A stretch of DNA of 64,000 nucleotides, from positions 3,833 to 67,832 of the forward strand of contig CAZIPM010000001.1 of the NCBI GenBank assembly GCA_964541395.1, in the 5' to 3' direction. Shown here piece after piece: positions 3,420 to 23,372 of this stretch (its first letter is position 1; each line of letters starts with the position of its first letter). The notes beneath the pieces were generated by a model. The model did no database searches. It saw only the letters and a list, made by a program, of their open reading frames with translations, and was not told where the DNA came from. The stretch comes from an uncultured Gammaproteobacteria bacterium. Its GTDB lineage: Bacteria > Patescibacteriota > Microgenomatia > UBA8517. A program made the position numbers and the translations under genes.

Positions 3420-3476
3420 AACGGAGGCTTTCTTCCCTCAATTGATTTTGGGGAAAGGAAGCCTCCGTTTTCGTTT
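3420..3476 (+). terminator. rho-independent terminator downstream of the YezD-like gene
   Basis: An imperfect stem of about 15 bp, aacggaggctttcttccc / gggaaaggaagcctccgtt, followed by ttttcgttt. Confidence 0.5.
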
Positions 3477-3563
3477 GTAACGGAAACGGTTTTAAAGTGC
3501 TCTCTTAAACCAGGTACTGAAAAGTAGCTGGGGAGAACAAATGAAAGGGGGTGAATAATATAA

Positions 3564-4823
3564 ATGAATAAATACCAAAAAGCAGTAACAGCTGCTGTAG
3601 CGGCTGGAACATTATTACTTCAAAGTTTTATGCCCATTTTTGCGGCAACGATAATAATTTCTGGAAACGGAACTGATTCCGACAATACAGCAGATGTAGA
3701 ATTAAATCACTCAGTAAGTGTTACTCAATCAAATTATGCGGACGTTAAAAACGATGTTGACGCATCAGCGACAACAGGTAAAAACGAAGCCGAGGGTAAT
3801 ACCGGAGGCGATGTTTCTATCGAAACAGGTAGCGCAGATACAACAGTAAATGTAAGCAACGATTTGAATAAAAACGTAGCTAATGTAGACTGCTGTGGAG
3901 CAACTGATTTTGAAGTCGAAATTTCCGGAAACGGAAAAGACTCAGATAATAAAGTTGACCTGGATTATAACGAAAAAACTTCTGCAGTAACAGTTTCACA
4001 AGAAAATTATGCAGATGTTGAAAACGATATAGATGCAACCTCTTCTACTGGTAAAAACGAAGCTGAAGACAACACGGGTGGAAATGTTTCTATTGAAACC
4101 GGTGCTGCAACAACTGAAGTTACCGTAGGAACGGCAGCTAATGTCAACTCCGCAAGAGTAGGAGGTGGCTCATCACAAGGTGGGTCAGTTTCAGCTCTAA
4201 TCTTGGGTAACGGCAAGGACAGCGACAACAAGATCGACCTAGATCTTAGTAGCTGGGTAGCCTTATACCAGGATAATTATGCAGATGTTGATAATGATAT
4301 CGACGCTGCAGCTTACACAGGTAAAAACGAAGCAGAAGACAATACCGGAGGTGAAGTATCCATAGAGACCGGAAAAGCAGACGTAACCGTTGAAGTAGAC
4401 AATTCAGTAAACTTCAACTTTGCAGATGCCAATTGTGGATGCTTATTAGAAGATCTTTTGGCTAAAATCGCTGGAAACGGAGTAGACTCCGAAAACAAGA
4501 TTGAAGCTGAAATAGGATCAGGACTTTCTGTAGATCAAAGCAACTGTGGAAGTGAAGAGAAAAAGTCTGAAGATTGTGAGTTAGACAACGATGTTGATGC
4601 ATTTGCAGGTACTGGCTTGAACGAGGCAGAGGATAATACCGGAGAACCGGGCGATGATCCTTCAATCGAAACTGGCGCAGCGGCTTCGACCGTTGAGTTA
4701 GGCAATTCAGGCAATACAAATGTATACGGTGCGAGTGATGACTGGGAATTACCAGGATTCGATTTCAATCTAAACTTTTCTTTCAGTTTATCTGAACTGT
4801 TAGATTTGTTAGGACTGAACTAA
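3564..4823 (+). CDS. secreted repeat protein with four tandem modules of about 100 aa each (novel family; module core GNGxDSDN...NYADVxNDxDAxxxTGKNEAEDNTGGxVSIETG)
   Basis: Signal peptide MNKYQKAVTAAVAAGTLLLQSFMPIFAAT. Four recognisable internal repeats, with CC/CGC motifs between modules. A strong SD (aaagggggtg) lies upstream of the ATG. Confidence 0.7.
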   Translation: MNKYQKAVTAAVAAGTLLLQSFMPIFAATIIISGNGTDSDNTADVELNHSVSVTQSNYADVKNDVDASATTGKNEAEGNTGGDVSIETGSADTTVNVSNDLNKNVANVDCCGATDFEVEISGNGKDSDNKVDLDYNEKTSAVTVSQENYADVENDIDATSSTGKNEAEDNTGGNVSIETGAATTEVTVGTAANVNSARVGGGSSQGGSVSALILGNGKDSDNKIDLDLSSWVALYQDNYADVDNDIDAAAYTGKNEAEDNTGGEVSIETGKADVTVEVDNSVNFNFADANCGCLLEDLLAKIAGNGVDSENKIEAEIGSGLSVDQSNCGSEEKKSEDCELDNDVDAFAGTGLNEAEDNTGEPGDDPSIETGAAASTVELGNSGNTNVYGASDDWELPGFDFNLNFSFSLSELLDLLGLN

Positions 4824-11275: not shown

Positions 11276-12169
11276 ATGAAAAAAGTCAGAAAGGCAGTCA
11301 TACCAGCAGCTGGTTTTGGTACGCGCTTTTTACCCCAGACCAAGGCTATGCCCAAAGAAATGCTCCCCATTGTCGATAAACCGGTTATTCAATATGTGGT
11401 TGAAGAATTGGTAGATGCAGGTATAAAAGATATTTTTATAGTCACCGGTTACCACAAAAGGGGAATTGAGGACCATTTCGACGCTCCAAACCTGGATCTG
11501 ATTGAAAATCTTAGAATGGGTGGTGAGAAGAAAAAACACTTATTGGAGGAAGTTGAAAAGATCTCCAATATGGCCAACTTTGTCTATGTCAGACAAAAAG
11601 GACCGTATGGAAACGGAACTCCTCTTTTAAATGTTAAGCATCTCATAGGTGACGAACCCTTTATTTATACCTGGAGCGATGATTTTATTGTGTCTGAGCC
11701 AAATAGGTTTAAGCAATTAATAGCTGCATATGAAAAATACGGTGTCAGTTGTCTGGCAGGGTTAAGAGTCAAAAATGATGAAGACTATAGCCGTTATGGT
11801 TTTGCCGGTGGAGAGGAAATTGAACCGGGAATCATTGATTCGAAAGTGATTATAGAGAAACCAGGTAAAGAAAATGCACCATCAGACTTAGCTACAGTAT
11901 CCGGTTATTTATTTACTCCGGATATTTTTAATTATTTGGATGAAGTTTTGAAAAATCTGCAGGAAGGGGATGAGTTTTACTACAATGATGCCCTTAAGCT
12001 GATGCTGAAGGATCACAAGAAAGTTTTGGCTGTGGAGATAAAAGACGGAAAATACTACGATACAGGCAATAAAATGGAATATCTTAAAACAGTAGTCGAA
12101 TTTGCCTTAAAACATAAAAGTTTAAACGGAGAGTTTAAAAAATATTTGGCTTCACTTGATCTGTCATAA
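11276..12169 (+). CDS. galU: UTP--glucose-1-phosphate uridylyltransferase
   Basis: N-terminus KAVIPAAGFGTRFLPQTKAMPKEMLPIVDKPVIQYVVEE is near-identical to the GalU consensus. Confidence 0.9.
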   Translation: MKKVRKAVIPAAGFGTRFLPQTKAMPKEMLPIVDKPVIQYVVEELVDAGIKDIFIVTGYHKRGIEDHFDAPNLDLIENLRMGGEKKKHLLEEVEKISNMANFVYVRQKGPYGNGTPLLNVKHLIGDEPFIYTWSDDFIVSEPNRFKQLIAAYEKYGVSCLAGLRVKNDEDYSRYGFAGGEEIEPGIIDSKVIIEKPGKENAPSDLATVSGYLFTPDIFNYLDEVLKNLQEGDEFYYNDALKLMLKDHKKVLAVEIKDGKYYDTGNKMEYLKTVVEFALKHKSLNGEFKKYLASLDLS

Positions 12170-12193
12170 TATTATATTAATCCAGTCCTTCTG

Positions 12194-12223
12194 TTGCCGA
12201 TAAATACATTTAACCTGTATAAT
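12194..12223 (+). promoter_or_regulatory. candidate sigma70-like promoter for rfbB (TTGCCG-N18-TATAAT, TG immediately upstream of the -10)
   Basis: Read directly from the sequence. Only about 14 nt separate the -10 from the ATG and there is no SD, so the transcript may be leaderless or short-leader. Confidence 0.3.
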
Positions 12224-12237
12224 ACAAAGCGCTTACT

Positions 12238-15219
12238 ATGAAAGTACTCATTACCGGTGGAGCAGGATTTATAGGGTCAAACTTCATTTACTATTGGTTA
12301 AAAAACCACCCCAAAGATAAAATACGAGTTTTAGATGCTTTGACGTTTGCCGGTAATAAAGATAATTTAAAACCTGTTCTTAAAAAATTAGAATTTATTG
12401 AAGGAGATATAACCAATAGGGATCAGGTAAAATCTGCAATGAAAGGTATTGATACTGTTGTCCATTTTGCCGCAGAAAGCCATGTGGACAGATCAATTTT
12501 TGAACCCGGCAAGTTTTGGAAGACCAATGTAGAAGGTACAAGAATTTTACTCGAAGAAGCTCATTATGCAAAAATACCAAGATTCCATCATGTGTCCTGC
12601 TATGACACGCAAACCAGGGCATTTACAAAAGAAGGTCTCAAAACTTATGATCAGATGAAAATTGGAGATTTGGTATTAAGCATTAATCTAAAGACTCAAG
12701 ATGTTGAATGGAAACCGGTTGAAAAGGTCATCATTCAGGACTACAAAGGAAAAATGATTCGGATGAAAAGTAAAGTTGTTGACTTTTTTGTGACTCCAAA
12801 TCACAGGATGCTTGTTCAGGCAAAAAGAAGCAGGGATTTATCTTTTAAGGATGCAAATTTTGTAAAAGATCAGGCTAGGAATTTCCTTCCTTATTACTAC
12901 CAGTGGAAAGGCAAATCTTCCAAAATTATTAAACAATTCGGTACTTGCCAAAAAGAATTTATGTATCTGCTGGGAATTTTTATCGGTGACGGATTTACTG
13001 CATATCAGGAAAAAAAACAAATCAACAAAACAGGATTGTCAAAACAGATGTATTGTCAGTTAGCCAGAGACAGTATGGGTAGGTTTATGCAAGTCTGTCA
13101 GATTGGGGATCAAAAATATACGATATCAAAATCATGGAGGATATTTTTGGATATTCCTGAAAAGGATGAGTGTAGAACCATGTGTGAATCCGCACTAACA
13201 AGACTAGGTATAAATTGGCATGCCCACAAAGGTAAGGCGGGAACTCATTTGTATATGACCTCAAAAAAGTTATTTGATATTTTTTCTGATTGTGGGAAAT
13301 ATGCAAAAAATAAACAAATTCCCGATTGGGCAGTGGATGCGCCACTGGAACTGTTGATGAATTTATGGAATGGATTGATGGATTCGGACGGAAGCAATCA
13401 TCGGGTGTTTTTTACCATTTCGCCTAAACTAGCCTATCAGTTTATGGAGCTAAGCGTAAAACTTGGTTACACTCCCACATTGAGTAAGCGATACACAAAA
13501 TCAATTTATGAAGGTCGAAATATTGAAGGTTGGTCATATGTCATATCGGTCGGATCAAGGCAAAGGATTTTAAGGAAAGAAATTTCTGAGGAAGTTGATT
13601 ACGATGGGAAGATTTGGTGTCTTAAAGTCAAAAACAACAAAAATTTCTTAATTGAAAGAAATGGAAGAACCGCTTTCTGTGGAAATACCGATGAGGTTTA
13701 TGGTGAACTGCCTTTGGATTCTAACGAACGCTTTAGTGAAAAAACTCCATATGCTCCCAGACCAGACAATTTGTATGCAATCAGTAAAGCTGAAGCAGAT
13801 AGGGTGGTTAGGGAGTTCTACAAAAGTACGGGAATGTATTTGACCATTTCTAACTGCTCCAATAATTATGGTCCATTTCAATTTCCTGAAAAATTTGTAC
13901 CCATTCTGGTTACCAACTTGATCGACGGACTTAAAGCTCCCGTTCACGGAGATGGGAAAAATGTCAGAGATTGGATACACACGGATGATCACGCAAAGGC
14001 TGTTGATTTAATTTTGGAAAAAGGAAAAGCTGGTGAAACTTACTTGGTTGGGAGTAATGTAGATGTTGCCAATATATACATTGCAAAACATATAGTAAAT
14101 CTGTATGGCAAAGATGAAAGCTGGATCCGTTATGTCCCTGACAGACACAGTAATGACAGAAGGTATGCAATCGATTCAAGAAAAATAATTCAGGAACTTG
14201 GTTGGAAGCCGGCTATAACCCGAGACAATTTTGATGATGGTTTAATGGATACTATCTCCTGGTATAAAAAGAATAAAGATTGGTGGAAGCCGCTTCTTTC
14301 CAGACAAACAGTAGTAGTTGACGGTGACAGTAAAATTTATGCATTTATAGAAATTGATAGGGAGTTAGGTAAAACCAAATTTAATTATGGTGAACCTGAA
14401 GAACACAACAAAGTTTCTAAACTTGCCGAAAAGATGATGGAGGAAGATCCCAGGAAAATATCTCTAATTAAAAAGAAAATCAAAAGTCACTATTGGTTTA
14501 AAAATTCTAAACCTGCTATACAAGACTCACTATTGGAACTTATTAAAATATCCAGAACATCAGGGTTTATTGAAGATCTGGCCAACAGACCGGAGGTTGT
14601 TGGTGGGTACACACAAAATAAAGTAGTTAAATTTGAACATTCACCAGACAAAAAACAAATCTATGGTGTAGCTATCTGGTTTGAAGTTGAAAACACTAAA
14701 GGTGAGAAACACATAGAAGGCTTTTATTCATGGGCTATGGGGGTTAAATCGGGAGCCAAAATGTTGGTTTTAATCCGTTACAAAAACGAAATAACCCATT
14801 TAGCCCTGACTAAGGAACAAAAATTTGCAATAGGTTCAGAAATCTACAATATGCCGGGAGGATTTCCAAAAATAAATGAAAGTGTTTTTGATTTGATACA
14901 CAGAAAACTTGAAGATGATTTGGGAGTGGATGTTAAAGACGGACATATTAAAGTCGGTGATATCATAGGTTTGGGTAGGATCATGCCTGATCCAGGTATG
15001 ACCAATAACCATCCATTTCTTTATGCCATAGTTTTAGATCTGACTGAAAACATCTTTCCCCCAATTAGAATCGGAGAGGTCTATGAAACAGGGGGAAAAT
15101 TGGTACTATGGCCTATTGAGAGATTATCTGAGCTGGTAAATAAAGTAGACGACTCATATTTCCTATCCTCACTTACAAGACTAATGCTTTCAGGGGTTAC
15201 TAGTCTAAAGTTAAATTAA
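12238..15219 (+). CDS. rfbB: dTDP-glucose 4,6-dehydratase interrupted by an intein, with a C-terminal Nudix-hydrolase-like domain fused
   Basis: Extein N: MKVLITGGAGFIGSNF...RFHHVS. Extein C: TDEVYGELPLD...YAPRPDNLYAISKAEAD...NYGPFQFPEKFVPI... (RmlB signatures). After about residue 700 comes an extra 300-aa domain with a degenerate Nudix box, PGGFPKINESVFDLIHRKLEDDLGV. Confidence 0.85.
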   Translation: MKVLITGGAGFIGSNFIYYWLKNHPKDKIRVLDALTFAGNKDNLKPVLKKLEFIEGDITNRDQVKSAMKGIDTVVHFAAESHVDRSIFEPGKFWKTNVEGTRILLEEAHYAKIPRFHHVSCYDTQTRAFTKEGLKTYDQMKIGDLVLSINLKTQDVEWKPVEKVIIQDYKGKMIRMKSKVVDFFVTPNHRMLVQAKRSRDLSFKDANFVKDQARNFLPYYYQWKGKSSKIIKQFGTCQKEFMYLLGIFIGDGFTAYQEKKQINKTGLSKQMYCQLARDSMGRFMQVCQIGDQKYTISKSWRIFLDIPEKDECRTMCESALTRLGINWHAHKGKAGTHLYMTSKKLFDIFSDCGKYAKNKQIPDWAVDAPLELLMNLWNGLMDSDGSNHRVFFTISPKLAYQFMELSVKLGYTPTLSKRYTKSIYEGRNIEGWSYVISVGSRQRILRKEISEEVDYDGKIWCLKVKNNKNFLIERNGRTAFCGNTDEVYGELPLDSNERFSEKTPYAPRPDNLYAISKAEADRVVREFYKSTGMYLTISNCSNNYGPFQFPEKFVPILVTNLIDGLKAPVHGDGKNVRDWIHTDDHAKAVDLILEKGKAGETYLVGSNVDVANIYIAKHIVNLYGKDESWIRYVPDRHSNDRRYAIDSRKIIQELGWKPAITRDNFDDGLMDTISWYKKNKDWWKPLLSRQTVVVDGDSKIYAFIEIDRELGKTKFNYGEPEEHNKVSKLAEKMMEEDPRKISLIKKKIKSHYWFKNSKPAIQDSLLELIKISRTSGFIEDLANRPEVVGGYTQNKVVKFEHSPDKKQIYGVAIWFEVENTKGEKHIEGFYSWAMGVKSGAKMLVLIRYKNEITHLALTKEQKFAIGSEIYNMPGGFPKINESVFDLIHRKLEDDLGVDVKDGHIKVGDIIGLGRIMPDPGMTNNHPFLYAIVLDLTENIFPPIRIGEVYETGGKLVLWPIERLSELVNKVDDSYFLSSLTRLMLSGVTSLKLN
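12598..13686 (+). mobile_element. intein (363 aa) with a LAGLIDADG homing endonuclease, inserted between Ser and the catalytic Thr of the RmlB 'TDE' motif
   Basis: It begins with C (CYDTQTRAF, block A) and has block B VTPNH. Two LAGLIDADG motifs are present (LLGIFIGDGFT and LWNGLMDSDGSN). It ends ...NFLIERNGRTAFCGN followed by T(+1)DEVYG. The host motif FHHVS|TDEVYG is perfectly restored once the insert is removed. Confidence 0.8.
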
Positions 15220-17445: not shown

Positions 17446-18207
17446 TTGGACGATTCACACAAGAATTATGAAGGGTATTTAGCCTTCGTAAATAAATATA
17501 AATCTTCATTAGGATATAAAGGCAATTACTCCAAAAACGAAATTGAAATTGTTGACGATATCTCATTATTTCCTACTTGTGAAGAATCTGCAGTTGGTCA
17601 AATGGTAAAGCAGGGAACCCCGCGTGAAGATGCAGTGAAAAGGGCAAGGATAGGAATTAGGGAAGAAAACAGATGGGGAGTTTCAATTTGTGAACCTGTA
17701 AAACTACCAACGGGGACATACGGAACTTTTATCAGATTTATTTCTTGGGGACAATTGGATTCTGGATTTGCGGGTATGATAATTATTCCTGTATTGACAG
17801 ATGGCAAGTTGATTTTTACTAAAGCATTCAGAAACGCCACCCGAAATTGGTGTTTGGAATTTCCAAGAGGTACAAGAGATCCGGGGGATTCCATATTAAA
17901 AACTTTAAATAGCGAATTAAAAGAGGAAGTCGGAGCTAAAGTTTTAAAAGACCCTGTTAAAATAGGAGAAGTCTTTCCTGACTCAGGTATCTTAACCTCA
18001 ATAGTTGAAATATATAAAGCAGAAATTGAGATTGTAGGTGAGGCTACACCTGGCGTGACTGAAGCCATAAAAGGCTTAGTATTTTTGACTCCCGAAGAAG
18101 TAAAGGCGTTACTTAAATCACAGCTTTATATAGATGAAGATGGAAAAGGGTATGAATTTAAGGATAGTTTTACACTGGTTGCATTAACGCTATTTAATAT
18201 ACGATAA
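17446..18207 (+). CDS. Nudix-hydrolase-like protein with a degenerate Nudix box; paralog of the C-terminal domain of the rfbB fusion
   Basis: ...LIFTKAFRNATRNWCLEFPRGTRDPGDSILKTLNSELKEEVGAKV aligns with ...LALTKEQKFAIGSEIYNMPGGFPKINESVFDLIHRKLEDDLGVDV of the rfbB C-terminal domain. It starts at a TTG; the true start is uncertain. Confidence 0.5.
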   Translation: MDDSHKNYEGYLAFVNKYKSSLGYKGNYSKNEIEIVDDISLFPTCEESAVGQMVKQGTPREDAVKRARIGIREENRWGVSICEPVKLPTGTYGTFIRFISWGQLDSGFAGMIIIPVLTDGKLIFTKAFRNATRNWCLEFPRGTRDPGDSILKTLNSELKEEVGAKVLKDPVKIGEVFPDSGILTSIVEIYKAEIEIVGEATPGVTEAIKGLVFLTPEEVKALLKSQLYIDEDGKGYEFKDSFTLVALTLFNIR

Positions 18208-18481
18208 GTTTATCTATACGAAGTTATGAACCTCATTTAAACATGAACCTCTTGGATGAAAAAGATAGAAAAAAAAGAAAAGGCCTAATAAAATTGAGTA
18301 CAAAATTATCTAATTTAAATAATGACAAAAAAATTGTACACCCAGAGAATTAGCAGACATACTGAAAAATAGAATTAATAGACTTAAACTAAATAAAAGG
18401 TTAATGTTTGAGACTGTTTTTTATCTTGTTATCCCGAAATTTCAACTTGACAAATTGAAATTTAAGGGTCATACTATCTCT

Positions 18482-19696
18482 ATGAAGCCAAGAACAATCT
18501 CGAAATTGATTCATAAGGTGATTAAAACTTTTCCTGCGATTGTTTTAACAGGCCCGAGACAGTCAGGTAAAACAACCCTGTTAAAACATGAATTTCCCAA
18601 CTATCAATATGCAAGTCTGGAGGATCCTGATGTAAGAATCAGAGCCAAAGATGATCCAAACGGATTTTTGAATCAGTTTGAAAAACAGGTTATTTTAGAT
18701 GAAATTCAATATGTTCCAGAACTCTTATCATATATAAAATCAAAAATAGATGAAAATAGAATGCCGGGAAAATGGATTTTATCCGGATCCCAAAATTTTT
18801 CTTTGATGAAGAATGTAAGTCAATCATTGGCAGGAAGAGCTGCCATCTTGACACTCCTACCCTTTTCCGTTGCTGAAAGAATTGGGAACGGGAACGGCTC
18901 ATTATTGGTAGATAAAGTTTTAAGTTTAAGTAGCGAAAGTAATTTAAAATCAAAATTTGATTTAAACGAAATTATTCTCCGTGGTAATTACCCTGAAGTG
19001 GCTAGTAATACAAAAGTTGATCGTCAAATCTGGGATGGATCTTATATCAATACATATCTTGAAAGAGATATTAGAAACTTGAAACAAGTAGGTGATTTAG
19101 GTCAATTTGAAATATTCCTGCGTGCTTGTGCAATTCGTACAGGACAGATATTGGATTTAAGTTCAATATCTAGAGAGATTGGAATTACCTTTACAACGGC
19201 TAAAAGATGGCTTTCACTTCTGGAAACTGGTTACCAAATATTTCTTTTACATCCATATTATCGAAATATCGGAAAGAGATTGGTTAAAAGACCAAAAATT
19301 TACTTTGCTGATACCGGGCTTGCCACTTATTTAATGGGTATAAATTCTGTTAACAGTTTAGTTTCTAGTTACCTTTATGGGGCAATTTTTGAAACATTGA
19401 TAGTTACTGATTTTTGGAAAAGATACTTTCATCATGGTCAAATTCCTCAGATGTACTTTCTACGAACGCATGATGATTTAGAGGTTGACTTATTAATCGA
19501 GAATCAAAATAAGCTGAATTTGATTGAAGTTAAATTAACATCAACAGTTAGAAAAGAGAATATCCAATCTCTTATCAAAGCGAGGACAGACATCAGAGGT
19601 GTTGATAAAACATTGGTTATCTCAAATACTAAGGAAAAGTTTTCTGTTGTTGAAGGGATAACCAATATTCCTGCGGAGTCGGTGTTAACTGTCTAG
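18482..19696 (+). CDS. AAA-family ATPase with DUF4143 C-terminal domain
   Basis: MKPRTISK...VLTGPRQSGKTTLL (Walker A) ...QVILDEIQYVPEL (Walker B-like), the typical AAA_14/DUF4143 architecture. The track start at 18404 adds 26 residues that are probably not translated. A TTGACA lies upstream at about 18446. Confidence 0.65.
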   Translation: MKPRTISKLIHKVIKTFPAIVLTGPRQSGKTTLLKHEFPNYQYASLEDPDVRIRAKDDPNGFLNQFEKQVILDEIQYVPELLSYIKSKIDENRMPGKWILSGSQNFSLMKNVSQSLAGRAAILTLLPFSVAERIGNGNGSLLVDKVLSLSSESNLKSKFDLNEIILRGNYPEVASNTKVDRQIWDGSYINTYLERDIRNLKQVGDLGQFEIFLRACAIRTGQILDLSSISREIGITFTTAKRWLSLLETGYQIFLLHPYYRNIGKRLVKRPKIYFADTGLATYLMGINSVNSLVSSYLYGAIFETLIVTDFWKRYFHHGQIPQMYFLRTHDDLEVDLLIENQNKLNLIEVKLTSTVRKENIQSLIKARTDIRGVDKTLVISNTKEKFSVVEGITNIPAESVLTV

Positions 19697-19730: not shown

Positions 19731-20315
19731 ATGATGCGTTTTGACCCTGATAAACATGTTAAAAAAACTTCAATTGCAGGAGTTGTTTTAATTGAAAGAC
19801 CAATCATAGGTGATGCCAGGGGATTTTTACATGAACCGTACAATAGGGAAGAATTAAAAGCAGCAACAGGTGTGGAATTTAACCCTGTCCAGTGGACTCA
19901 TGCATACATAAAGCCCGGAGTTATAAAAGCTGTTCATAGTGAAGACTGGAATAAACTAATTTATCCTGTAACTGGAATTTTATACGCTCCTATTGTAGAT
20001 CTAAGGCCAGAATCTGAGACTTTCGGTAAAGTAGAATACATTACAATAGACAACACTAAAGATGATTCTCCAAGGCAGGCATTGTTTTTACCCTCGGGAG
20101 GTATCGGGAATTCAATTTGTACACCAGGTACTGAAATGATGCATTATTTTTATTTGATAGATGAATATTGGGATGATGCCAAAGCCAGGGGAATTGCCTG
20201 GGACGATCCAGATCTTAATATCAAATGGCCAATAGAAAACCCAATTCTTTCCGAAAGAGATAAAACCAATCCGACATTAAGGGAGGCTTTTCCCCAGAAA
20301 TTTAAAGACAAATGA
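19731..20315 (+). CDS. rmlC: dTDP-4-dehydrorhamnose 3,5-epimerase
   Basis: Cupin-fold RmlC signatures: GDARGFLHE, YAPIVDLRPESETFGKVEYI, FLPSGGIGNS, IAWDDPDLNIKWP. Confidence 0.85.
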   Translation: MMRFDPDKHVKKTSIAGVVLIERPIIGDARGFLHEPYNREELKAATGVEFNPVQWTHAYIKPGVIKAVHSEDWNKLIYPVTGILYAPIVDLRPESETFGKVEYITIDNTKDDSPRQALFLPSGGIGNSICTPGTEMMHYFYLIDEYWDDAKARGIAWDDPDLNIKWPIENPILSERDKTNPTLREAFPQKFKDK

Positions 20316-21217
20316 AAAAGATTTTAGTTGTAGGAGCAACTGGATTAGTGGGATCAAGATTTGTTTCTTTGGCTAAAGATAAAGTTGGAATAATCCCCGT
20401 TGATGAAAATACACTGGATATAACATCTGCTGAAGCTGTTGATAATTACTTTTCCGAAAATGAATTTGATTCAGTATTAAATTTTGCAGCAATTACAAAT
20501 GTAGATGCAGCAGAGAAAGAAAAAGGAGATGAAAATGGAATTACCTGGAGATTAAATGTGGTTGGTGTTGAGAATTTAACCAAAGCTTGTATTAAATATA
20601 ATAAATTTATAGTTCAGATTTCTACCGACTTTATTTTTAAAGGAGATCAGAACAATCCAGGACCGTACAGTGAAGATGCAGAAATTCCCGATAGTATGGA
20701 TGGAATTGGTTGGTATGGATGGACAAAGAATAGGGCAGAAAATTTACTCCGCAATTCCGAGTGTCGTAATGTGATTGTCAGGATCGCCTACCCTTTTTAT
20801 TCGGCTGAGTTTACACCAAAATTGGATTATGCAAAAAATTATTTAAAACTTCACGATGATGGAAAATTATTCCCTATTTTTACCGACCAGACATTATCAG
20901 TTATTAATGTAGATGAATTGGTAGAACCACTTCTCAAAATCTTAACAGAAGAACTTATAGGCACTTTTCATATTGTTTCAAGCAATACCACAACACCATT
21001 TGATTTTGTGGAATATTTACTTAGAAAAGCAAGAAATGTAGAAGGTGTTGTTCAGAAAGGGTTAATGGAAGAATTCTTAAAAGCAGAAGGAAGAACACCA
21101 AGACCAAGATTGGGAGGGTTTAAGACTAAATTTACTGAAAAAAACTTAAATATGAAATTTAAAACTTGGCAGGAAATGGTGGATGAATTTGTTATCAGGC
21201 TCCAAAATAAGAAGTAA
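20312..21217 (+). CDS. rmlD: dTDP-4-dehydrorhamnose reductase
   Basis: N-terminal Rossmann MKKILVVGATGLVGSRF; ISTDFIFKGD...PYSEDAEIP...YGWTKNRAENLL follows the RmlD pattern (STDYVFDG..PY.E.D...P...YG.SK..GE). It overlaps rmlC by ATGA. Confidence 0.8.
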   Translation: MKKILVVGATGLVGSRFVSLAKDKVGIIPVDENTLDITSAEAVDNYFSENEFDSVLNFAAITNVDAAEKEKGDENGITWRLNVVGVENLTKACIKYNKFIVQISTDFIFKGDQNNPGPYSEDAEIPDSMDGIGWYGWTKNRAENLLRNSECRNVIVRIAYPFYSAEFTPKLDYAKNYLKLHDDGKLFPIFTDQTLSVINVDELVEPLLKILTEELIGTFHIVSSNTTTPFDFVEYLLRKARNVEGVVQKGLMEEFLKAEGRTPRPRLGGFKTKFTEKNLNMKFKTWQEMVDEFVIRLQNKK

Positions 21218-22117: not shown

Positions 22118-22217
22118 AGACTGTATTTTAACATAGTAAACATCGATTTATTAGAAATATCAAAGTAATTGATTCCCCATATTGTTTTCTTTATATATTA
22201 AGTGTTTAATTAGGAAT

Positions 22218-23372
22218 ATGGACAAAGTTATTATTGTTATGCCCGCCTACAATGAGGCTGATAATATTGGCAAAATGATTGAGGTTTTATTTGAAGTAGA
22301 ATTTCCCAAAATAAAAGGTGTTGAAATGCATCTTTTTGTCGTAGATGACAAATCTCCTGATGGAACGGGAGATATTGTTAAAAAATACCAGAGTAAATAT
22401 TCCAAACTTCACCTTCTTCAAAAAGATAAGTCGGGATTGGGTTATGCTTATATCGCAGGATTTAAAAGGGCAATGGAAACATTAAAAGCCGATGCGGTTA
22501 TGGAAATGGATGCAGACTTTCAGCACCCACCAAGATTTGTCAAACCGATGGTTGAAGCATATCTAGCTGGTGCCGACTATGTTATAGGTAGCAGATATAT
22601 CAAAGGAGGATCTGTTCCTAAAGAATGGGCACTTTTCAGAAAAGCGATCAGTTATTTCGGCAATTTGTTTATTAGAATAGTTCTATTAAAGCCAAAATTG
22701 CATGATTTAACTACGGGCTTCAGACTTACCAGAGTTAAGGGAGTATTAGATCAAATTGATCTCAATAAACTAATGGAACCTGAAAGATTTGCATACAAAG
22801 TCGACCTTTTGTACAAGTCAATTAAAAACTCGAAAAAAGTTGTGGAGGTTCCTCTTGAGTTTGCTTCAAGAACAAAGGAAAAATCTAAATTTAATCCCAA
22901 AGAAATGGTCTCCACTTTCAAAGTAGCAATAATCTTGGGAATTAAAGACAAACAAAAAATAATTAAATTTGGAATAGTAGGCTTTACTGGATATCTTATA
23001 AATGCTTTCTTTTTAAATTTCTTTTCAAAATCAGGATTCCCAGAATGGTCATCTTGGGCACTCTCAACTGAACTGGCAATAGTCAACAATTTTACTTGGA
23101 ACAATTTATGGACCTTTAAAACTGATGAGATAAAAGGAATTGCTAATGTAATTAAAAAATTCCTACAGTTTAACTTGACATCAGCTGGCGCTCTTCTGAT
23201 ACAAACAGTTCTTGGAACTTTGGGAGTATATTTCTTCGGTTCTACATCAAGACAACTACTTCTTCCTTTCATAATTCTCTTTGTTGTTCTTCCATATAAC
23301 TATTTTATGTACACCAAAGTGATTTGGAAGAATAAATCGAAACCTGCAGTAAATCCTTCGATAGCCAAGTAA
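22218..23372 (+). CDS. GT2 polyprenyl-phosphate glycosyltransferase (Dpm1/ArnC/GtrB-like) fused to a C-terminal GtrA-like 4-TM domain
   Basis: MDKVIIVMPAYNEADNI...VVDDKSPDGTGDI...MDADFQHPP (GT2 DxD). The C-terminal third is hydrophobic (GtrA-like). I chose the ATG at 22218 with AGGAA upstream over the track's TTG at 22182. Confidence 0.7.
   Translation: MDKVIIVMPAYNEADNIGKMIEVLFEVEFPKIKGVEMHLFVVDDKSPDGTGDIVKKYQSKYSKLHLLQKDKSGLGYAYIAGFKRAMETLKADAVMEMDADFQHPPRFVKPMVEAYLAGADYVIGSRYIKGGSVPKEWALFRKAISYFGNLFIRIVLLKPKLHDLTTGFRLTRVKGVLDQIDLNKLMEPERFAYKVDLLYKSIKNSKKVVEVPLEFASRTKEKSKFNPKEMVSTFKVAIILGIKDKQKIIKFGIVGFTGYLINAFFLNFFSKSGFPEWSSWALSTELAIVNNFTWNNLWTFKTDEIKGIANVIKKFLQFNLTSAGALLIQTVLGTLGVYFFGSTSRQLLLPFIILFVVLPYNYFMYTKVIWKNKSKPAVNPSIAK

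Follow-up and report, generated by a model that had tools for sequence, protein, structure and literature searches.

Here we report an intein inserted at the catalytic site of dTDP-glucose 4,6-dehydratase (RmlB), encoded on a 64,000-nucleotide (nt) stretch of metagenome-derived DNA (contig CAZIPM010000001.1 of assembly GCA_964541395.1, positions 3,833 to 67,832; hereafter referred to as the window). Nucleotides 12598 to 13686 of the window encode a bona fide full-length intein, which comprises a HINT splicing domain and a nested homing endonuclease domain with two LAGLIDADG motifs. A sequence-only reading of the window had proposed an intein at this position, and that identification is now backed by family profiles, the predicted fold, a naturally intein-free allele and the conservation of the splicing residues. 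The coordinates, the length of 363 amino acids (aa) and all of the strings given in that reading were correct, including LWNGLMDSDGSN at intein residues 253–267 (nucleotides 13354–13398). We consider it very probable that the element is a functional, mobile, class-1-type intein in rmlB, in which splicing, its route and the endonuclease activity are predicted from sequence.

The host open reading frame (ORF; 12238..15219, + strand) encodes 993 residues and begins with MKVLITGGAGFIGS, leading to AKIPRFHHVS. The insert, which codes for CYDTQTRAF (intein residues 1–9) to ERNGRTAFCGN, comprises 363 codons (1,089 bp) that are in frame and free of stops, and the host frame picks up again at TDEVYGELPLDS. 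Its first codon is TGC (Cys; 12598–12600, ORF residue 121) and its last codon is AAT (Asn; 13684–13686, ORF residue 483), followed by ACC (Thr+1; 13687–13689). The N-extein (12238..12597, + strand) corresponds to RmlB residues 1–120, ends in RFHHVS and aligns with residues 1–124 of Streptococcus suis RmlB. The RmlB part of the C-extein (13687..14298, + strand) opens with Thr+1-Asp-Glu in the motif TDEVYG, and its alignment with solved RmlB structures runs to approximately residue 325 of the spliced protein.

The host protein is readily identified as RmlB. The whole precursor passes the NCBIfam equivalog TIGR01181 for dTDP-glucose 4,6-dehydratase (369.1 bits; cut-off, 365.1), and the match consists of two stretches, the first of them in the N-extein, that abut the insert on either side. 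The protein spliced in silico aligns with solved RmlB structures without a gap over the junction (6bi4, E = 9e-94; S. suis RmlB 1kep, E = 2e-91), in agreement with the earlier proposal that excision restores the RmlB motif and far above what chance would produce. Removal of the insert yields the junction peptide RFHHVSTDEVYG, which is identical in 1kep, and the residues of the spliced junction RFHHVS↓TDEVYG (the arrow marks the splice site) are those of the S. suis enzyme. In Salmonella enterica RmlB, the 4- and 6-hydroxyls of glucose are bound by Thr133, Asp134 and Glu135, the last of which also removes the proton at C5 (PMC9415975). The alignment identifies Thr+1-Asp-Glu of the window protein as the counterparts of these residues, which upholds their designation as active-site residues in the sequence-only reading and places the insertion point after Ser120, directly before the Thr of the RmlB Thr-Asp-Glu motif that contacts the substrate. 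All of the RmlB hallmarks are present in the host, namely the GxxGxxG NAD-binding site (GGAGFIGS; 12256–12279, + strand, within the N-extein), Thr-Asp-Glu and YxxxK (YAISK; 13774–13788, + strand, in the C-extein).

A homologue search with the insert retrieved 27 proteins carrying the same ~360-aa element inside RmlB, NAD synthase (NadE), ThyX or a phage protease-like protein. An AlphaFold2 (AF2) model of the insert, built on the alignment of these homologues, has a predicted local distance difference test score (pLDDT) of 91.5 and a predicted template-modelling score (pTM) of 0.85. In a Foldseek comparison of this model with the PDB, the best matches were intein homing endonucleases, comprising TliVMA (7qsu, E = 9e-16), PI-PkoII (2cw7, E = 1e-15), PhoVMA, PI-SceI and PI-PfuI; the top matches range down to E = 1e-10, and the Foldseek probability is 1.00 for TliVMA, PI-PkoII, PI-SceI and PI-PfuI. 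Next comes I-DmoI, a LAGLIDADG enzyme that is not part of an intein, as a match to the middle domain (E = 3e-6; template-modelling score of 0.6 on the target). A profile of the family, searched against PDB sequences, matched PI-PkoII (E = 6e-11), PI-SceI (4e-8), TliVMA (2e-7), AceL NrdHF (5e-7) and Methanocaldococcus jannaschii (Mja) KlbA (2.5e-6). In the model, the insert is a HINT fold with a LAGLIDADG endonuclease domain of the duplicated alpha-beta-beta-alpha-beta-beta-alpha type, and profiles, AF2, Foldseek and conservation agree on an intein (12598..13686, + strand) that extends from Cys1 to Gly362-Asn363.

Both of the LAGLIDADG motifs named in the sequence-only reading correspond to catalytic motifs of PI-SceI. 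Motif 1 (MYLLGIFIGDGFT; 12961..12999, + strand; intein residues 122–134, containing LLGIFIGDGFT) and motif 2 (LMNLWNGLMDSDGSN; 13354..13398, + strand) include YLLGIFIGDG and NGLMDSDG, which the family profile aligns with YLLGLWIGDG and LAGLIDSDG of PI-SceI, respectively; motif 2 also aligns with LEGYFIGDG of PI-PkoII. From this alignment, both catalytic Asp residues are present, Asp131 in GDG and Asp264 in SDG, and they are conserved in 32 of 32 and 28 of 32 RmlB alleles of the intein, respectively.

A natural intein-free allele provides direct evidence that the 1,089 bp are a discrete presence/absence element. This 630-aa protein (P0032), which comes from another metagenome and clusters with the 993-aa protein at 90% identity, is exactly as long as the predicted spliced product and reads AKVPRFHHIS followed by TDEVYGELPLDSNDRF. 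Its gene lies at 4001–5893 of contig L083, a Logan assembly of SRR22387926, and has the junction HHIS↓TDEVYG; it aligns with the window gene minus the insert without gaps, at 87% nucleotide and 97% amino acid identity. The two loci are syntenic, sharing a CAP-domain gene, an 87-aa ORF, a nucleotidyltransferase gene and rmlB, with rmlC and rmlD further on. The exteins of the two alleles differ by 213 synonymous and 19 non-synonymous codons and are thus under purifying selection. Mismatches between them are about twofold denser within 60 nt on either side of the junction (26/120) than elsewhere (221/1773; Fisher p = 0.007). This pattern fits co-conversion or target-site divergence and is only weakly suggestive, because divergence is just as high at the 3′ end of the gene. 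L083 also has an extra gene for a 160-aa RNaseH_like (PF04308) protein (3425–3907) between the nucleotidyltransferase gene and rmlB, where the window has a 68-nt spacer (12170–12237).

The splicing residues were examined in a clade of related inteins. A scan of 185,579 GTDB species representatives with an alignment of the intein alone yielded 244 relatives, and the junctions could be read in 77 of the best 80 loci. Together with the window copy, these loci form an alignment of 78 members, which spans at least 8 host genes and includes 32 RmlB alleles; none of the 78 members has an internal stop. Block A (CYDTQTRAFTKEG; 12598..12636, + strand) starts with Cys1, the predicted N-terminal nucleophile, followed by Tyr2 (75/78) and Asp3 (77/78). 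Block B (VDFFVTPNHRMLV; 12778..12816, + strand) contains TPNH (residues 66–69), with Thr66 at position 7 of the block (B:7) and His69 at B:10, as well as Met71 at B:12 (73/78). Block F (VDYDGKIWCLKVKNNKNFLIERNG; 13594..13665, + strand) contains Cys341 (F:4), Lys348 at the position of the F:13 His, and Arg354, whereas block G (RTAFCGN; 13666..13686, + strand) contains Cys361 (G:5), the penultimate Gly362 (G:6) and the terminal Asn363 (G:7). Cys1, Thr66, His69, Cys341, Arg354, Gly362 and Asn363 are invariant in all 78 members. The G:5 residue is Cys in 55 members, Ser in 22 and Ala in one, and the +1 residue is Thr in 64, Ser in 13 and Cys in one. Three alignments assign Cys341 to F:4, opposite an Asp in PI-PkoII (VYDLSVEDNENF) and in Mja KlbA (IYDLTVEDNHTY). 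The F:13 His position is occupied by Lys in 28 of the 32 RmlB alleles and by Glu or His in the NadE alleles, and neither accessory His (F:13 or G:6) is found in the RmlB alleles.

The class 1 features Cys1, block B T66-P-N-H69, Asn363 followed by Thr+1 and the HINT fold are all present, and the invariance of Cys1 favours class 1 chemistry initiated by this residue as the most likely route. In this scheme, Cys1 would form a thioester at the Ser120–Cys1 bond, Thr+1 would take over the N-extein, cyclization of Asn363 would free the intein, and an O-to-N shift would join the exteins as RFHHVS–TDEVYG, producing a 630-aa active RmlB with a Nudix-like tail. The freed intein, a predicted endonuclease, would then cut intein-less rmlB genes at the conserved coding sequence for HH(V/I)S↓TDEVYG, and repair of the break would copy the intein into them.

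The distribution of the clade is that expected of a homing intein. At least 31 GTDB species carry the intein at the identical RmlB site, x-S↓T-D-E-V-(Y/F/M)-G. The bacterial carriers belong to Patescibacteria, Levybacteria, Staskawiczbacteria, Omnitrophota, Planctomycetia, Clostridia, Actinomycetota, Armatimonadota, Acidobacteriota and Chloroflexota, and the archaeal carriers to Thermoplasmata, Diapherotrites, Methanosarcinales and an Asgard-lineage (Promethearchaeati) genome. NadE accounts for 29 of the 77 junctions (site GYF↓TKxGDGG). The other 17 lie in GDP-mannose 4,6-dehydratase (Gmd), another short-chain dehydrogenase/reductase (SDR) epimerase, a sugar C-methyltransferase, PurD, NrdD, ThyX, a MetE-like protein and a DNA methylase, hosts that were confirmed by Pfam, and in further host proteins. 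The Gmd alleles (L052, L041, L092 and L094) have the site YQAS↓SSEMFG, which is homologous to the RmlB site HHVS↓TDEVYG at the catalytic Ser/Thr position, and in another extended SDR epimerase (L044 and L046) the intein sits one residue off, at CT↓SSANVYG. The clade has thus colonized equivalent sites in paralogous SDR enzymes.

IMG/VR contains 431 further relatives of the clade, many of them in phage genes, including terminase-like and methylase-like hosts as judged from the flanks. RmlB alleles with the intein at the same site are found on viral contigs of 154–406 kb (L084–L090 and L093), and Gmd alleles also occur in IMG/VR, making viruses plausible vectors of the intein. The window intein is at least as conserved as the enzyme, being 40–60% identical to those of other RmlB alleles, as compared with 38–53% for the C-extein; in a Thermoplasmata archaeon, for example, the intein is 57% and the exteins are 43–54% identical to those of the window. 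None of the 120 nearest homologues of the window extein has a length compatible with an intein. Homing would explain this sporadic, cross-domain and virus-associated pattern, from which we infer mobility. The description of the element as uncommon in the sequence-only reading holds in terms of numbers (at least 31 of the 185,579 species representatives), although the RmlB allele is phylogenetically widespread and also present on viral contigs. Its description as an active selfish element is reasonable, given the intact catalytic residues, the presence/absence polymorphism and the cross-domain spread, and would apply to activity as a prediction. In one archaeal metagenome-assembled genome (L073, JBDRMT010000013.1), a second, different LAGLIDADG intein seems to lie upstream in the host ORF (CLHPNTNVLL to VLHN↓T); if this upstream element holds, the gene would contain two inteins.

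Several observations weigh against a functional, mobile, class-1-type intein. First, searched as a single sequence against Pfam and NCBIfam, the insert scores below the curated cut-offs for Intein_splicing (30.8 versus 35.8), LAGLIDADG_3 (20.7 versus 22.5), Hint_2 (20.6 versus 28.4) and intein_Nterm (14.9 versus 24.5), although the E-values for Intein_splicing and intein_Nterm are significant, and its phmmer match to PI-PkoII is weak (E = 2e-4). The profile check suggested in the sequence-only reading is thus marginal for the single sequence and clear for family profiles and fold; single-sequence profiles are not decisive alone, and it is the family profiles and the fold that settle the identity. 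Second, the GC content of the insert, overall and at third codon positions (GC3), equals that of the flanks, providing no compositional sign of recent arrival, and the closest relative of the intein, at only 60% identity, gives no sign of recent mobility either. Third, the residues that usually assist class 1 splicing are substituted at three positions, with Cys for Asp at F:4, Lys for His at F:13 and Gly for His at G:6, and efficient class 1 chemistry is therefore not to be taken for granted. Fourth, the clade-invariant Cys occupies F:4, the position of the hallmark nucleophile of class 3 inteins, in which it is the obligate branch-point nucleophile (PMC2807308, PMC7891396). However, such residues are typical rather than obligatory, several inteins without the conserved His residues still splice (PMC7664689), and the penultimate Gly, which the sequence-only reading had correctly noted as atypical, is invariant in all 78 members and therefore represents a fixed clade character compatible with function, rather than a lesion. 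That reading had overlooked the invariant Cys at F:4 and the replacement of the block F His by Lys.

The presence of Cys1 together with a Cys at F:4 is the clade's more striking trait, and raises the question of whether these inteins splice by a class-3-like or hybrid route, in which Cys341 either attacks the N-terminal scissile bond or accepts the acyl group from Cys1 in a branched thioester, before transfer to Thr+1. Consistent with such a route, Cys341 is conserved in all members and matches position F:4 in both PI-PkoII and Mja KlbA; Thr or Ser occupies +1 in 77 of the 78, as in nearly all class 3 inteins (PMC2807308); and the RmlB alleles resemble the class 3 intein AceL NrdHF, which matches the family profile, in having Met at B:12 and neither the F:13 nor the G:6 His (PMC7891396). 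Moreover, inteins with the class 3 WCT motif that start with Ser1 or Cys1 have been mentioned (PMC2807308). Nevertheless, of the features that define class 3 the clade has only the Cys at F:4, and it thus falls outside the published definitions of that class (PMC2807308, PMC7891396). Class 3 is defined by the absence of Cys1, whose invariance here argues that it is needed in its own right; B:12 is Met rather than Trp; and G:5 is Cys or Ser (Ala in one member) rather than Thr. In addition, a class 1 intein into which WCT was introduced did not acquire class 3 splicing (PMC7664689), indicating that a Cys at F:4 does not by itself imply the class 3 mechanism. We therefore regard a class-3-like route as rather unlikely, and Cys1-initiated class 1 splicing as the preferred interpretation. 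More speculatively, and with similarly low confidence, the clade might represent a mechanistic bridge between classes 1 and 3, in which a thioester is relayed from Cys1 to the F:4 Cys or either nucleophile is used interchangeably; alternatively, a disulfide between Cys1 and Cys341 might act as a redox switch that renders the activity of RmlB, NadE and Gmd conditional.

The substitutions could also be signs of decay. If the insert were a non-splicing intein remnant, rmlB would be a pseudogene or encode an inactive protein, and the absence of the penultimate His and of the His and Asp of block F, together with the sub-threshold single-sequence profile matches, would fit such an element. However, all of the clade-invariant residues are intact, with no stop or frameshift, and the same apparent defects are fixed in 78 intact members over many host genes. 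Furthermore, the excess of synonymous over non-synonymous differences from the intein-free allele is not that of a pseudogene, and a tblastn search of the 64-kb window found no second copy of rmlB, of the intein or of the C-terminal domain. As the only rmlB in the window, followed by rmlC (19731–20315) and rmlD (20312–21217), the gene would have to be functional, and hence spliced, for the rhamnose pathway to operate. Decay is thus very improbable.

The remaining alternatives have almost no probability. A native accessory domain of the RmlB lineage, or a non-splicing bacterial intein-like (BIL) or Hint domain, would be in keeping with the weak Pfam matches to Hint_2 and PT-HINT and with the lower-ranking matches of the family profile to a BIL domain (2lwy, E = 0.002) and Hedgehog. 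BIL domains generally lack a +1 nucleophile and reside in variable regions, whereas the present element possesses both the +1 nucleophile and the terminal Asn and lies at a highly conserved active-site position. The 97%-identical allele lacks precisely the insert, the 120 nearest RmlB proteins are without it, and the same element occurs in the unrelated NadE, ThyX, NrdD and PurD; the empty allele and the multi-host distribution effectively refute this interpretation; a native domain in RmlB homologues was one of the outcomes that the sequence-only reading had named as contradicting its proposal. An assembly chimera of rmlB with a foreign endonuclease gene, for which nothing specific speaks beyond the metagenomic source, is ruled out by recovery in separate assemblies, as the identical 993-aa protein is encoded on four contigs of up to 220 kb that come from two or more separate assembly records (ENA ERZ909588 and ERZ27254732), one of the four being a 168-kb contig from the groundwater project PRJNA268031, and the insert is in frame, precisely bounded and matched by the same architecture in at least 31 other genomes.

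Beyond the RmlB fold, the ORF that hosts the intein continues for ~306 residues (14299–15216; 14299..15219 including the stop codon, + strand), which belong to the host rather than to the intein. This C-terminal extension has only three close homologues among 5.8 billion proteins, and an exhaustive search yielded about 107 representatives, most of them stand-alone proteins of ~250 aa. Among 32 aligned family members (the window copy and 31 homologues), 13 match Pfam NUDIX; the window copy has no Pfam match, and ADP-sugar pyrophosphatases are a weak match to the profile of the family (E = 0.015). The window copy contains a degenerate Nudix box (GGFPKINESVFDLIHRKLEDDLGV; 14857–14928), in which RE is replaced by RK and EE by DD. 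Given this degeneracy, the domain may bind a nucleotide sugar without hydrolysing it. The AF2 model of the extension is poor (pLDDT of 49). Fusions of the extension to RmlB are rare (P0028, P0029, P0032, P0040 and P0043), and the tail is absent from the 31 other intein-bearing RmlB proteins that we examined. Thus, the host RmlB appears to carry a rare and degenerate Nudix-like C-terminal domain.

In the neighbourhood of rmlB, the nucleotidyltransferase gene occupies 11276–12169. Between rmlB and the downstream rmlC and rmlD lie a gene for a 253-aa NUDIX-domain protein (17446–18207) and a gene for an AAA_14/DUF4143 ATPase (18404–19696); a tblastn search (E = 1e-3) detected no similarity between the NUDIX gene and the C-terminal domain of RmlB. 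Scans of the window for tRNA and Rfam families gave no matches. A long run of + strand ORFs occupies 22182–64000, starting with a GT2/GtrA glycosyltransferase gene (22182–23372); this is the glycosylation locus mentioned in the sequence-only reading, of which only the first genes were analysed. The organism is a groundwater bacterium of low GC content, and the named RmlB homologues closest to the window extein are from the candidate phyla radiation (Parcubacteria, Roizmanbacteria, Daviesbacteria and Doudnabacteria).

The element is of an ordinary kind, being a LAGLIDADG intein in the active site of an enzyme; its combination of splicing residues is unusual, and its site in RmlB is one that we did not find in the literature. 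In the searchable literature, we found no paper describing an intein in RmlB or NadE, and the main text of the intein survey by Novikova (2016) does not mention dehydratase, epimerase or ThyX. Database entries exist in which the intein is largely unremarked, such as a Staskawiczbacteria protein in a UniRef cluster named ‘DOD-type homing endonuclease domain-containing protein’. Genome annotation should treat the 993-aa ORF as the precursor of RmlB with a mobile intein rather than as a new, giant dehydratase. In this organism, the rhamnose pathway would depend on post-translational self-splicing, and at the Ser↓Thr-Asp-Glu site of RmlB, the Thr that contacts the substrate would double as the +1 nucleophile. 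If Cys341 is catalytic, the signature of Cys1, Cys at F:4 and Gly at G:6 could mark a new mechanistic variant. With hundreds of members in bacteria, archaea and viruses, the clade offers a convenient system for studying the origin of class 3 splicing chemistry, and the natural intein-free allele is a ready-made substrate for the endonuclease.

A comparison with known inteins places the window element closest in architecture to the archaeal and yeast class 1 inteins. PI-PkoII (2cw7), TliVMA and PhoVMA (7qsu and 7qst), PI-SceI (1vde and 1lwt) and PI-PfuI (1dq3) have the same HINT domain with a nested LAGLIDADG endonuclease carrying two motifs, and these inteins likewise have Cys1, the block B TxxH motif, a terminal Asn and, as their point of insertion, a conserved catalytic site in an enzyme. 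Both the structural and the profile comparisons gave them as the best matches, yet they are only 10–15% identical in sequence to the window intein, and their host genes and sites differ from Ser↓Thr-Asp-Glu of RmlB. Archaeal and yeast class 1 inteins generally have Asp at F:4 and a penultimate His. Where it can be aligned, PI-PkoII has Asp at F:4, whereas the window clade has Cys at this position, Gly at G:6 and one of Lys, Glu or His at F:13. Among nucleotide-sugar enzymes, an intein is known from M. jannaschii UDP-glucose dehydrogenase (listed in InBase), which belongs to a different family and has a different insertion site.

The class 3 inteins, with MP-Be DnaB as the prototype and the ‘MCT’ intein AceL NrdHF (6zgq), share the F:4 Cys and the +1 Thr or Ser with the window clade. 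AceL NrdHF, which ranks ninth among the PDB sequences matched by the family profile, with a match over the N-terminal splicing half, further shares with the RmlB alleles the Met at B:12 and the absence of both the F:13 and the penultimate His. By contrast, class 3 inteins have no N-terminal nucleophile and have Thr at G:5, whereas the window clade has an invariant Cys1 and Cys or Ser at G:5 (PMC2807308, PMC7891396). The sister inteins in NadE, ThyX, NrdD, Gmd and PurD differ in host gene and presumably in endonuclease target, and in the NadE alleles the F:4 Cys is followed by Pro and F:13 is Glu or His; nevertheless, they are 25–40% identical to the window intein over the full 363 aa and have the same invariant residues and the same C-terminal signature, (C/S)-G-N↓(T/S).

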